Shown piece by piece: positions 52-5,138 of a stretch of 64,000 nucleotides of DNA. Location of the stretch: the NCBI GenBank assembly GCA_025611195.1, contig GCA_025611195.1_4718.1. The stretch is one strand, 5' to 3'. The translations under genes and the position numbers were made by a program. This DNA comes from a phage. Positions within the stretch are counted from its first letter, which is position 1, and every line of letters begins with the position of its first letter. The notes below the pieces were generated by a model. It had not been told where the DNA came from, ran no database searches, and saw nothing but the letters and a program-made list of their open reading frames with translations.

Positions 52-591
52 TTACTGTTTGTTCTTAGCTTCACGAATGAAAATAACGTCAGGATATTCT
101 TGAGATTCAATGAATTCAGGATTACGATAACGACGAATATGACGCATCGCCGTACAGGCAAGTTTGTAAAGATGTTCCTCCTCACGTTGTGTTAATAGCA
201 TCAGCTGTGTGTCTGGAATCACGAATGGAAGTCTTTCATTCACATATTCCCGGAGGTCATCGAGATCATCATGATGGATACCCTCTGAGAGTTTATATAA
301 CGCTTCCAGCAGTTCTAATCCGCCAAATTGGTAACTTCCTATTGTCGTCTTAAACAATGCGCCAGAACGCGTGGTGGATGCTCTATCGGCAACGTCGTAC
401 TGTTCCAACACATATCCGTAGACCATGCTACGTCGATCCAGTGTATCTGTAACGAGATTACGCCATCGTTCCAGTCTTTTGAGCGCCTTGTCGATAGAGT
501 AAACGATCATGCCATGTTCATCTAACTCTTCCGCGATACCCATCAGTTCGGTGTTGTTCGGTTTTGCTGCGCCGATAAGAAAAACACTCAT
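52..591 (-). CDS. hypothetical protein (179 aa)
   Basis: Complete ORF; start codon overlaps stop of upstream ORF (TAATG). No motif recognised. Confidence 0.55.
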   Translation of the reverse strand: MSVFLIGAAKPNNTELMGIAEELDEHGMIVYSIDKALKRLERWRNLVTDTLDRRSMVYGYVLEQYDVADRASTTRSGALFKTTIGSYQFGGLELLEALYKLSEGIHHDDLDDLREYVNERLPFVIPDTQLMLLTQREEEHLYKLACTAMRHIRRYRNPEFIESQEYPDVIFIREAKNKQ

Positions 592-1043
592 TACTCAAAC
601 TCCTTATTCCAAAACTCGATTAACGAATCAAGCTGTTCCTTACTGGTTATCTCACCTCCCTTAACAAAATGAAATCGTTCTTGAATCGCGATCTTTTCAA
701 GGATATCGGTAAGTAAATGACGATGACAGAAATTTCCTGCAGGACAATAACACCCTAACACCACAACCGGATGGGAGAATAAAGACAACCATTCCGATGT
801 ATGATCAACAAAGCTTTTACGCATGAGCGCGTAGTAGCCTGCGGTATATTCATCCTCGGTTAACGTTTTTGATTTGATTCCTGTAACAAGTTCCCATGAA
901 GGTGCGTAGAGCGGGTTACCTGTTTTCACCGTTGTGTCCAGTAGGAACGCCCGTGTGTCTGAAAGCCAACGATATTTAGCTAATTGAAGGGTGTATAAAA
1001 ACATAGCACTAACCCCCAAAGGATAAAAATAAAACCTTAACAT
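591..1043 (-). CDS. DUF4326-like protein (CxC...CH motif)
   Basis: Contains VVVLGCYCPAGNFCHRHLLTDIL, matching my recollection of the DUF4326 signature (LxCWCxPxxCHxDVL). ORF-track start 1052 is GTG; ATG at 1043 or 1004 (GGGGG RBS) more likely. Confidence 0.5.
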   Translation of the reverse strand: MLRFYFYPLGVSAMFLYTLQLAKYRWLSDTRAFLLDTTVKTGNPLYAPSWELVTGIKSKTLTEDEYTAGYYALMRKSFVDHTSEWLSLFSHPVVVLGCYCPAGNFCHRHLLTDILEKIAIQERFHFVKGGEITSKEQLDSLIEFWNKEFE

Positions 1044-1109
1044 AACCACCACCGCAACCCCATTACAGGGCTACGGTGGGGTCATACAGAGAGACGTGTT
1101 ATGTTACAA

Positions 1110-1589
1110 TCAGTCTTTCAACAGCTCGGCTGCATACGCACTGATGTTGTCGCGAATATGCTTAACCTGAGTTGTCGGGAAAGATTTCTTATACGCGGTG
1201 GTCAGACGTCCGTAAACCTGTTTCTTCTCGTTAGAGCCGAAACCAACTTCAGCGCTACGTTGAACTGTTGCAGACACAACGTCTTTGCCCAGCGGCAGGG
1301 TTACAGAAACAACGTCGACCTGTTTGTTGTCCGCCATGAACTGTGCACCAACGCGGCCAACCGCCAGACCGTGAGCCAGGCCAATGTCGGTGGTCAGTTT
1401 CTGTGCTTTTTCCAGGATTTCTTTTTCTTCCGGTGTTACCAGAGTACCCAGGAAATCACTGCCCAGCTTCTGGCTACCTGATTCGTCCAGTTTAAGACCG
1501 GCGGCGATTTTATCAGAAAGAGCCTGAACTTCCGGACGTACGTTAGAAGTGGTTTCAGTTGCTACGGTGGTTTCTACAGCTTCAGACAT
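1110..1589 (-). CDS. hypothetical protein (159 aa), predicted early gene
   Basis: ORF with GGAG 8 nt upstream of ATG; CTATATTACCT promoter-like motif about 120 nt upstream. Confidence 0.6.
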   Translation of the reverse strand: MSEAVETTVATETTSNVRPEVQALSDKIAAGLKLDESGSQKLGSDFLGTLVTPEEKEILEKAQKLTTDIGLAHGLAVGRVGAQFMADNKQVDVVSVTLPLGKDVVSATVQRSAEVGFGSNEKKQVYGRLTTAYKKSFPTTQVKHIRDNISAYAAELLKD

Positions 1590-3694: not shown

Positions 3695-4426
3695 TCACCA
3701 TTCATACGATCCGGCGCACTGATGCCCCAATAGTACCAACGCGTCGTCTTTGGCCGCCAGATATTTCTCTAACGTTATCCGTGAAACAGACACATTAGAG
3801 AAATCCATCACACCTAAGCGATGATCGTAATGATTAATTTGCATCCGGTAATAACCTTTCTTTACCACCAGAAACTCACCTTGACGCAACCATAGCGGAA
3901 CGTTGTCAACCTCCGCATGGATATAAAACACCGGGCATTCTGTCGTAACAGAGTTTTCCTTTCCGTCGCTATCTGTAATCTTCCCTTTGGGAACAGCCGC
4001 GATAAAACATTCTCCGATACGCTCTGTTTGGTACCCGTTCGGATAACGCGGGTCATGAAATAACCAATGCTCATCGCTAATATCAACATCGGATAACAAC
4101 GTACGATGTGGGCGTAAGGCGATATCAAACGGAACACGATAGATAACGTACCCACCTAACCAATGGGATAAGTGACCACCGGAATAGTACTGCTTGATTG
4201 CGGTACTGTATCCGTATATGCAACCCATCAAACTACTGGATACACAGATCCTTGGAAACGACCCGTCTTCCATACGCAAGGTACGTTGAGGGATACGCGG
4301 CATCATCGTTTTCAGTTCGGTATCGGTGCTAATATGCAATAAACCGAAAGGAAGCGTTTTACTCGGCACCCACGCGCAACGTTCCATAATCGCTCTTGGG
4401 ACAATAGTCTCGATAGACGATAACAT
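3695..4426 (-). CDS. hypothetical protein (243 aa)
   Basis: ORF directly downstream of 4428..5138 in the same operon. Confidence 0.5.
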   Translation of the reverse strand: MLSSIETIVPRAIMERCAWVPSKTLPFGLLHISTDTELKTMMPRIPQRTLRMEDGSFPRICVSSSLMGCIYGYSTAIKQYYSGGHLSHWLGGYVIYRVPFDIALRPHRTLLSDVDISDEHWLFHDPRYPNGYQTERIGECFIAAVPKGKITDSDGKENSVTTECPVFYIHAEVDNVPLWLRQGEFLVVKKGYYRMQINHYDHRLGVMDFSNVSVSRITLEKYLAAKDDALVLLGHQCAGSYEW

Positions 4427-4427
4427 A

Positions 4428-5138
4428 TCACCCCCTCAGAATCGCTTCTGTTTCGCTGATCGTATCCGCAGGATAAACCAAACTACTATCGATTGCGTTA
4501 TTCACGTAACCACCCATTAAGTTGGTGATGGTGTTTGTACCACTATCGATAATGTTTCGTAATCCGATGTCGATGGCTTTTAAGGTACTGCGTTCTTCAT
4601 CCGAAAGCAGACGCCATGCCCGACGACGATCGTTGGGGTCACGCGTGGTGATAGACGCCAGAACAGAATAGATGCTGCTGTCTGCGTTCAGTTTAACGCC
4701 AGCCAATTTCGCTGACGTATACAACAACTGATATTTTTCTTTCTCAGTATACCACCATGGCACTTTACCGAGTGTATAGATCTCGTTATACATCAGCCAT
4801 GGGAAAGAGTTTCGCATCACGACGTCGGTCGACACCAACACCGTGTCACCAGGAAGAAATACGAACTCGTAAAACGGCTGACCATCCATGGTAATCTCAC
4901 GGATGTCAGACGGGTCGATATGGAGCTGGGTCAATGCGTGGCTGACACCATACTGACCATCAGGAAGAATAATCGGGCAGCACGCACAAACCCGGTTCTC
5001 ACTCCCGATGATAGATAAACCCAATCCCTCGTAACGGACGGGCGTCAGAATCGAACACCCGCCACGAGTAACAACAGATTTATCTTCTTGTATGTCCCAG
5101 TCCGCAAGCACCGCAGCACCGTTGCGGACAAGCGCCAT
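4428..5138 (-). CDS. hypothetical protein (236 aa)
   Basis: ORF tightly packed in minus-strand operon. Confidence 0.5.
   Translation of the reverse strand: MALVRNGAAVLADWDIQEDKSVVTRGGCSILTPVRYEGLGLSIIGSENRVCACCPIILPDGQYGVSHALTQLHIDPSDIREITMDGQPFYEFVFLPGDTVLVSTDVVMRNSFPWLMYNEIYTLGKVPWWYTEKEKYQLLYTSAKLAGVKLNADSSIYSVLASITTRDPNDRRRAWRLLSDEERSTLKAIDIGLRNIIDSGTNTITNLMGGYVNNAIDSSLVYPADTISETEAILRG

Follow-up and report, generated by a model that had tools for sequence, protein, structure and literature searches.

The window analysed here, a stretch of 64,000 nucleotides of phage DNA (contig GCA_025611195.1_4718.1 of assembly GCA_025611195.1), carries near its left edge two small genes that are both encoded on the minus strand: a gene for a protein of 137 aa at positions 591-1004 and, directly downstream of it, a gene for a protein of 179 aa at positions 52-591. 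Over its first 3 kb the window is 93.9% identical to Escherichia phage vB_EcoM_Goslar (hereafter Goslar), a 237-kb nucleus-forming jumbo phage of E. coli. In Goslar their orthologues are gp215 (137 aa) and gp216 (179 aa), each of which bears the annotation 'hypothetical protein'; the numbering of the Goslar genes used here is identical to that of the Goslar structure preprint. As an earlier note on this DNA had described, the stop codon of the upstream gene overlaps the start of the downstream gene. In the sequence TAATG, the TAA of the 137-aa gene (593-591) and the ATG of the 179-aa open reading frame (591-589) have one base in common. In addition, a Shine-Dalgarno sequence, AAGGAG (605-600), is located inside the 137-aa gene and precedes the ATG of the 179-aa gene by a spacer of 8 nt, which together with the overlap defines a translational-coupling junction at 589-605 on the minus strand. 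The 137-aa gene itself starts with the ATG at 1004, the position at which ten phage homologues and the Goslar annotation begin as well (the Met of MFLYT is the first residue in all ten homologues); the start codon is ATG in the window and GTG in Goslar gp215. The longest open reading frame, which would extend to 153 aa from a GTG at 1052, was rejected because it would cross a hairpin and because the start of the homologues corresponds to the ATG at 1004. Both open reading frames are genuine genes, co-oriented and coupled in translation, of a nucleus-forming jumbo phage of the Goslar type.

The presence of hairpins on both sides of the pair, likewise reported in the earlier note, was borne out. 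The upstream hairpin (1049-1079, minus strand) is rich in G+C, has a stem of 14 bp and was recovered in a terminator scan with a folding energy of -33.1 kcal/mol (z = -5.8). It lies between the homologue of Goslar gp214, the stop codon of which is found at 1110-1112, and the 137-aa gene. In the stem a U-A and a G-C pair of Goslar have become U.G and G.U in the window, with preservation of the pairing. The hairpin is probably the terminator of the upstream gp214 homologue; the stretch of 45 nt that separates it from the ATG at 1004 is T-rich and contains TTATG. The second hairpin (CCTTCCTTCCC...GGGGAAGGAAGG, about 3-39) is located downstream of the stop codon of the 179-aa gene and was found on both strands, with folding energies of -29.6 kcal/mol on the minus strand and -28.4 kcal/mol on the plus strand (z about -5.4), and it is followed on the plus strand by a T-rich tract. 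Because both strands fold equally well and because of the T-rich tract on the plus strand, this element is probably a bidirectional terminator, common to the 179-aa gene and the convergent tail-tube gene that lies just beyond the left edge of the window. In Goslar the same hairpin element separates gp217 from gp216 and is flanked on either side by T-runs.

In Goslar the pair is flanked on one side by the convergent tail-tube and tail-sheath genes (gp217 and gp218) and on the other side by gp214, gp213 and the head maturation protease gp212. The product of gp214 is among the most abundant Goslar virion proteins outside the structural model (Goslar structure preprint). The NAD- or ADP-ribose-related gene neighbourhood that the earlier note had brought up is thus not the setting of this pair, the adjacent genes of which encode tail tube, tail sheath, an abundant virion protein and a head protease.

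The layout of the junction has been maintained over a considerable evolutionary distance. Both the overlap and the AAGGAG sequence are kept in Goslar and in a related locus (L017) where most synonymous sites differ (dS 0.7-1.5), and among the Goslar-like phages the gene arrangement, the overlap and the Shine-Dalgarno sequence are conserved despite high synonymous divergence. The persistence of an overlap and its Shine-Dalgarno sequence near synonymous saturation is also what would be expected of a true functional pair. Within the window, for which the counts rest on crude gene calls, overlaps of 1 or 4 nt occur at 5 of the 43 same-strand junctions (12%) and gaps of at most 10 nt at 14 of the 43. 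A stop/start overlap is therefore ordinary in this genome, which makes the coupling of the pair less special.

The 137-aa protein, which contains LGCYCPAGNFCHRHLL, had been assigned in the earlier note to the DUF4326 family on account of a CxC...CH signature. Profile searches led to a different assignment. In Pfam-A the protein matched PF22751 (DUF488-N3a, 'Active DUF488-N3 subclade') with 37.5 bits, above the gathering cut-off of 27 (E 3.3e-9), with residues 30-104 of the protein aligned to positions 39-116 of the 118 positions of the profile. DUF488 came second with a weak match, and DUF4326 (PF14216) was not matched at E <= 1 by hmmscan. The protein is also a member of PHROG 2450 (phrog_2450, function unknown; E 6e-33), it is 95.6% identical to Goslar gp215, and it is orthologous to phiKZ gp151 and PhiPA3 gp174. 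Homologues were found by tblastn in 289 phage records and include phiKZ gp151, PhiEaH1 gp132 and Eowyn gp196 as well as proteins of Vibrio, Salmonella, Xanthomonas, Proteus and Pseudoalteromonas phages. A profile search yielded 770 homologues at E <= 1e-5, which for the most part stand alone, with a length of 118-137 aa, and in many cases sit on contigs of 200-316 kb. All of the 120 homologues listed among these 770 carry PF22751. Across the same 120 the residues Q7, P35, Y53, C85, C87, F92, C93, R95 and G117 are invariant, and at least 90% of the sequences share T5, D23, T25, K27, W37, K44, G90 and H94. The C-x-C...G-x-F-C-H-R motif of DUF488-N3a and the N-terminal polar residues have all been kept in the window protein, and in the homologue alignment the invariant polar residues concentrate in the Cys loop. 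The dN/dS of the gene is 0.11. When back-translated, the strict motif of DUF488-N3a was encountered at only 11 places in the genomes of 185,579 species, and the clade is therefore essentially viral; it is, moreover, widespread in jumbo phages. In short, the 137-aa protein is a stand-alone DUF488-N3a domain, of a family that had already been catalogued.

The fold predicted for the protein is in line with this assignment. An AlphaFold2 model built on the homologue alignment reached a pLDDT of 96.1 and displays an alpha/beta domain with strands at residues 2-7, 20-23, 80-85 and 114-119. According to this model, the protein is a small Rossmann-like alpha/beta domain with a Cys loop between the third core strand and the next helix, which is the fold that characterizes the RapZ-C/DUF488/DUF4326 clade within the rhodanese-phosphatase superfamily. 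Among the predicted viral structures in BFVD the top match was PhiPA3 gp174 (TM 0.81), followed by DUF488 proteins with TM values of 0.5-0.62. The DUF4326 proteins ranked 9th and lower (TM 0.38-0.46, E 0.06-1), so that on the basis of the fold as well the DUF4326 assignment gives way to the DUF488 proteins and their TM values of 0.5-0.8. Nevertheless, it was a near miss, because DUF4326 and DUF488 are reportedly, after Burroughs and Aravind in 2023, sister families in the same RapZ-C/DUF488/DUF4326 clade, and the CxC...CH(R) signature did point, in broad terms, to the right kind of enzyme-like domain.

The predicted active-site loop reads C85-Y-C87-P-A-G90-N-F92-C93-H94-R95. In the model, C85 is the last residue of strand 80-85 and H94-R95 open helix 94-109, and the invariant Cys-x-Cys...Gly-x-Phe-Cys-His-Arg loop takes the position of the Cys-X5-Arg phosphate-binding loop of the protein-tyrosine and dual-specificity phosphatases. 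The 137-aa protein would be a Cys- and Arg-dependent phosphoesterase or phosphotransferase whose substrate carries a phosphate linked to a sugar. A reading without catalysis starts from the same residues: three Cys and one His within ten residues could chelate a metal, in which case the CxC...CH element would be a zinc site with a structural role and the domain would only bind a ligand or nucleic acid. The nearest solved structure to the model, the C-terminal domain of RapZ (PDB 5o5s and 5o5q), agrees with such a reading, as RapZ-C is a binding or adaptor domain for a sugar-phosphate and small RNA. However, the invariant Arg at the N-terminus of the helix and the conserved residues Q7, D23, T25, K27 and K44 exceed the needs of a zinc site, and the Pfam curators call this very subclade 'active'. 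A purely structural role of the loop therefore appears unlikely to us. We know of no DUF488 member for which an activity has been demonstrated, so that the protein is a putative enzyme with a predicted mechanism and substrate.

Clues to a possible substrate were obtained from the genomic context of the DUF488-N3a genes. At 20 of the 80 viral loci a UvsX-like recombinase gene (phrog_97) of the same orientation lies upstream of the DUF488-N3a gene at a distance of one or two genes, a linkage that derives mostly from related phiKZ-type genomes with shared synteny. Examples of the adjacency are Vibrio phage BONAISHI and phiKZ, where it concerns gp152-gp151 and where RNase H gp155 is encoded close by. 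In Goslar the neighbours of gp215 are structural genes and UvsX is encoded elsewhere in the genome, away from gp215 (Table S3, PMC10299810). At three loci (L043, L047 and L053) DUF488-N3a continues at its C-terminus into a Walker-A/B domain of some 150 aa, in which the motifs APRQSGKT and VYVDDA occur. This second domain has a gene of its own beside the DUF488-N3a gene in L060 and is also encoded close by in L044, and it found no match in Pfam. On a bacterial contig (L109) an open reading frame of 641 aa combines the palm (27.4 bits, cut-off 25) and thumb of a DNA polymerase beta (pol-beta) with DUF488-N3a, a single case in which the DUF488 score of 23 bits stays under the cut-off. At another of the 11 places with the strict motif, an open reading frame for a GIY-YIG endonuclease runs in frame into DUF488-N3a.

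Because of the UvsX adjacency, the fusion to or adjacency of the Walker-A/B domain and the one pol-beta fusion, a role of the enzyme in nucleic-acid end processing suggests itself. The most likely substrate would then be a blocked DNA (or RNA) end in the recombination-dependent replication or repair of the phage. The context clues, which are few in number and partly non-independent, thus seem to point to DNA metabolism and end processing, and the three of them provide a concrete and cheap hypothesis of nucleic-acid end processing for phiKZ or Goslar. A search of the literature returned no study of phiKZ gp151, which is also absent from the published chimallivirus core-gene table (PMC10299810). 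The 'gp151' of the PCH45 Tn-seq preprint and the 'gp216' of the phiKZ EPI-vesicle preprint are unrelated genes that carry the same numbers by chance.

The 179-aa protein (21 kDa, pI 5.3) is mildly acidic and soluble, and it was not matched in Pfam (E up to 10), PHROGs, NCBIfam or PADLOC. Sequence and profile searches of the PDB returned matches at chance level only (UDP-GlcNAc 2-epimerase, E 0.059; dTDP-rhamnose reductase, E 0.34). Structure prediction had been proposed in the earlier note for both proteins; it was informative for the 137-aa protein, whereas for the 179-aa protein AlphaFold2 reached a pLDDT of just 36.7 on an alignment of 4 sequences and delivered no usable model. The distribution of the protein is narrow. 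By tblastn against 50,697 phage records it was found only in Goslar, a search of 5.8 billion proteins returned only relatives with 85-96% identity, and scans of viral and metagenome sequences for the gene led to Goslar-like genomes only. Overall, the relatives are 85-100% identical, with the addition of one homologue of 184 aa and 30% identity, P0008, which was retrieved (E 2e-18) in an exhaustive HMMER search of 1.84 billion representatives and which itself had no match in Pfam or PHROGs. The P0008 contig comprises 912 bp, of which 47 nt precede the gene. The gene has its own GGAG site and spacer, there is no stop/start overlap, and no end of a DUF488 gene is recognizable in the 47 nt upstream. 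A 70-nt intergenic element that the contig has in common with a different part of Goslar suggests that it belongs to a more distant Goslar relative. Two other candidate homologues (P0009 and P0010) were rejected as spurious, being long repetitive proteins that were matched in 6-11 stretches. A resemblance by eye to the EExxE...ExxD motif of MazG-type pyrophosphatases (E21-E25 and E63-D66) was discarded as well, as D66 is lost in P0008 and the resemblance lacks profile support.

The 179-aa gene is real, expressed and under strong purifying selection. Its dN/dS versus an 85%-identical relative is 0.05, and in purified Goslar virions LC-MS picked up 4 peptides of the orthologue gp216 (YP_009820903.1), which amount to a coverage of 25%. 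The detection, which corresponds to an estimated 12-29 copies per virion, together with the location of the gene amid those for tail tube, tail sheath and the abundant virion protein gp214, could indicate a low-copy protein that is virion-associated or ejected. However, the same preparation contained about 170 copies of PhuZ and about 126 copies of chimallin, and since these clearly non-virion proteins were present at higher levels, the detection of gp216 may well reflect carry-over. The protein is, moreover, absent from the 28-protein cryo-EM model. A function in the virion is in our opinion improbable.

The earlier note had treated the two genes as a module and had named co-occurrence as a check. 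Relatives of the 179-aa protein were present within 4 kb of the DUF488-N3a gene at 3 of the 80 IMG/VR loci, all of them Goslar-like. In the flanks of the 77 other viral loci no relative was found with tblastn, hmmsearch or hhalign (best probability 1%), nor was one found beside the DUF488-N3a gene in 10 annotated phages with BLASTP, phmmer or hhalign. On a Logan contig with DUF488-N3a the neighbours are unrelated to the 179-aa protein as well. Across the 80 loci the immediate neighbours fall into 69 sequence clusters. In the phages in which the DUF488-N3a gene lies close to the tail genes, the number of small genes between it and the tail-tube gene varies, from one in Goslar to two in Special G, and in Proteus phage 10 the slot before the adjacent reverse-strand structural gene is empty. 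The two gene families are thus not neighbours in evolutionarily distant genomes, and they do not form a conserved module of two genes. Rather than a conserved partner, the 179-aa gene is an orphan or insertion that is specific to its lineage and occupies a variable slot. The slot between the DUF488-N3a and tail-tube genes holds zero to two unrelated small genes in other phages, and the 179-aa gene would share its translation with the enzyme only through genome compaction.

One could argue that, in Goslar-like phages only, the DUF488-N3a protein has a dedicated partner in the 179-aa protein, which would act as a regulatory, specificity or inhibitory subunit, where the coupling ensures a fixed stoichiometry and other phages use non-homologous partners in the same slot. 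The retention of the 1-nt overlap and the internal Shine-Dalgarno sequence at the synonymous divergence given above and the strong constraint on both genes would fit such a partnership. In addition, an overlap of 1 or 4 nt between the DUF488-N3a gene and the downstream gene exists at 17 of the 68 callable viral loci, a number that includes many close relatives, as compared to the 5 of 43 junctions within the window. On the other hand, the slot can be empty, no homologue of the 179-aa protein accompanies the approximately 87 other DUF488-N3a genes, and the P0008 gene is preceded neither by an overlap nor by a recognizable DUF488 gene end. Furthermore, peptides of gp216 were present in the virion preparation in which gp215 was not found. 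We therefore hold a dedicated partnership to be doubtful. The overlap at about a quarter of the loci, against 12% of the window junctions, could nevertheless mean that the downstream slot is not random. It is conceivable, albeit very unlikely, that this often coupled and variable slot holds lineage-specific modulators, of which the 179-aa protein would be the founding member of a new family. If true, it would redirect or regulate a DNA-end or nucleotide phosphoesterase, for instance in adaptation to the defences of E. coli.

The earlier note had also considered a role in counter-defence, in which the module would destroy a signal or modification derived from NAD or ADP-ribose, such as the products of Thoeris, SIR2 or TIR systems. 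This idea draws on the prediction that DUF4326 proteins process the ribose-linked phosphates of ADP-ribose derivatives (PMC9503650, PMC7824862). It could also draw on a weak PADLOC match of the 137-aa protein to PDC-M45C (E 0.0026, 15.5 bits), which hints at the presence of DUF488-like domains in candidate defence systems. However, the 137-aa protein belongs to DUF488-N3a and not to DUF4326, and the 179-aa protein had no match in the PADLOC library of defence systems. No gene related to NAD or ADP-ribose was identified among the annotated neighbours and the 20 neighbour and fusion proteins that were scanned with Pfam; the associations that were seen are with UvsX, the Walker-motif domain and the pol-beta domain. 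Counter-defence of this kind must thus be regarded as highly improbable, and the evidence does not favour a two-gene module. Both observations that the earlier note had itself named as speaking against its reading, the lack of a DUF4326 match and the lack of conservation of the neighbours, were, strictly taken, made. As a whole that reading is partly supported: what remains is a known enzyme family, with a predicted function, followed by a lineage-specific orphan gene, with no link to NAD or ADP-ribose.

Considering all of the above, we lean, with modest confidence, towards the explanation that the locus encodes an end-processing enzyme of the DUF488-N3a clade and a separate, lineage-specific accessory gene, which do not constitute a conserved module. 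The practical gain lies in a corrected annotation, in which Goslar gp215 and its relatives, now 'hypothetical protein', join phiKZ gp151 as DUF488-N3a proteins. The 179-aa protein adds another expressed orphan to those of a model nucleus-forming phage, and it matters only if it interacts with the enzyme or with a host defence.

A comparison with known systems places the 137-aa protein as follows. RapZ-C, although nearest among the solved structures, shares only 11% identity with it, constitutes the C-terminal half of a two-domain protein with a P-loop domain as the N-terminal half, and does not have the CxC...CHR loop. DUF4326 proteins resemble it in being short viral domains of the same broad fold class with a CxC...CH-type loop, but the Macro, SLOG and NADAR domains that are their typical fusion partners or neighbours were not seen around the 137-aa gene. 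With the Cys-X5-Arg phosphatases, such as PTEN and the dual-specificity enzymes, the predicted structure has in common that a Cys ends the core strand and an Arg opens the next helix. The loop is longer here, however, with nine residues between C85 and R95 and two extra Cys, and there is no relationship at the level of sequence. The Walker-A/B fusions of some DUF488-N3a homologues recall the kinase-plus-phosphatase design of polynucleotide kinase-phosphatase, yet the phosphatase of T4 Pnk is a HAD protein and has another fold, so that the likeness is a functional analogy only. The closest counterparts are the other members of PF22751 (phiKZ gp151, PhiPA3 gp174 and Goslar gp215), which are likewise stand-alone proteins of about 120-137 aa from large and jumbo phages and with which the window protein has the motifs T.Q, D.T.K, AP.W and C(Y)C..G.FCHR in common. 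The C-terminal helix of the window protein (15 residues, 122-136) is longer than that of most homologues, and in the Goslar-like phages the gene lies beside tail genes and not beside UvsX; in all essentials the window protein and the PF22751 members are alike.

One or two positions upstream of DUF488-N3a, and on the same strand, jumbo phages of the phiKZ type and some of those infecting Vibrio carry a gene for a UvsX-like recombinase, as seen for the two genes in phiKZ (L003, 2485-4351) and in BONAISHI (L007, 1024-2863). The upstream UvsX-like gene was found in 20 of the 80 IMG/VR viral loci with a DUF488-N3a gene (L019-L098), whereas in the Goslar-like phages, the Agricanvirus phages and Proteus phage 10 the DUF488-N3a gene instead adjoins structural genes of the tail or baseplate. 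On the downstream side, a 1- or 4-nt overlap with an unrelated gene was observed at 17 of the 68 IMG/VR loci with usable gene calls, as compared to 12% of the junctions in the window, yet an excess is not established because many of these loci are closely related.

In the window, the pair formed by the DUF488-N3a gene and the 179-aa gene is directly preceded by the orthologue of Goslar gp214 (1110-1589, minus strand), a protein that according to a 2026 preprint is among the most abundant virion proteins absent from the cryo-EM model, with ~865 copies per virion. At the start codon of the DUF488 gene (window 1002-1004; L001 7002-7004), the window and IMGVR_3300045988 have ATG, whereas Goslar and IMGVR_3300011560 have GTG at the same position. 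A comparison of window 52-1004 with the Goslar-like relative L017 yielded a dS of 0.69 for the DUF488 gene and of 1.49, roughly double, for the neighbouring 179-aa gene. With so few sites the gap may be noise; alternatively, a recombination boundary where the two genes meet may account for it.

The 912-bp contig L011, which encodes the single remote homologue known for the 179-aa protein (P0008), shares an intergenic element of ~70 nt (649-718) with Goslar (NC_048170, 86688-86755) at 83% identity. The element directly follows a hairpin, and in Goslar it is located in the gp076/gp075 spacer. The genes flanking it are unrelated between the contig and Goslar, and in phages related to Goslar it therefore probably represents a promoter-like element; a search of the window that allowed up to three mismatches did not recover it.

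A scan of 185,579 species' genomes for the strict motif CYCxxGxFCHRH gave no more than 11 sites. At one such locus, in the Anaerolineae MAG JAYRZU010000108.1 (L109, 2433-4358), a single ORF of 641 aa combines the palm (27.4 bits against a cut-off of 25) and thumb of DNA polymerase beta with a DUF488-N3a-like domain and a C-terminal domain without family assignment. In Caballeronia arationis (L105, 5215-6432) a GIY-YIG/I-TevI-like ORF continues in frame into a DUF488-N3a domain.

Fusions also occur in phages. At some IMG/VR loci DUF488-N3a carries an additional C-terminal domain of ~150 aa (phrog_2586), with a Walker A-like (APRQSGKT) and a Walker B-like (VYVDDA) motif and no match in Pfam (L043, 3917-4888; L047 and L053, both 3977-4888). 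The same domain is encoded by a separate gene neighbouring DUF488-N3a in L060 (4697-5200) and L044 (1540-2013), and the window has no homologue of it. The layout is reminiscent of that of RapZ, in which a P-loop domain is combined with RapZ-C, and that of the kinase-phosphatase end-healing enzymes.
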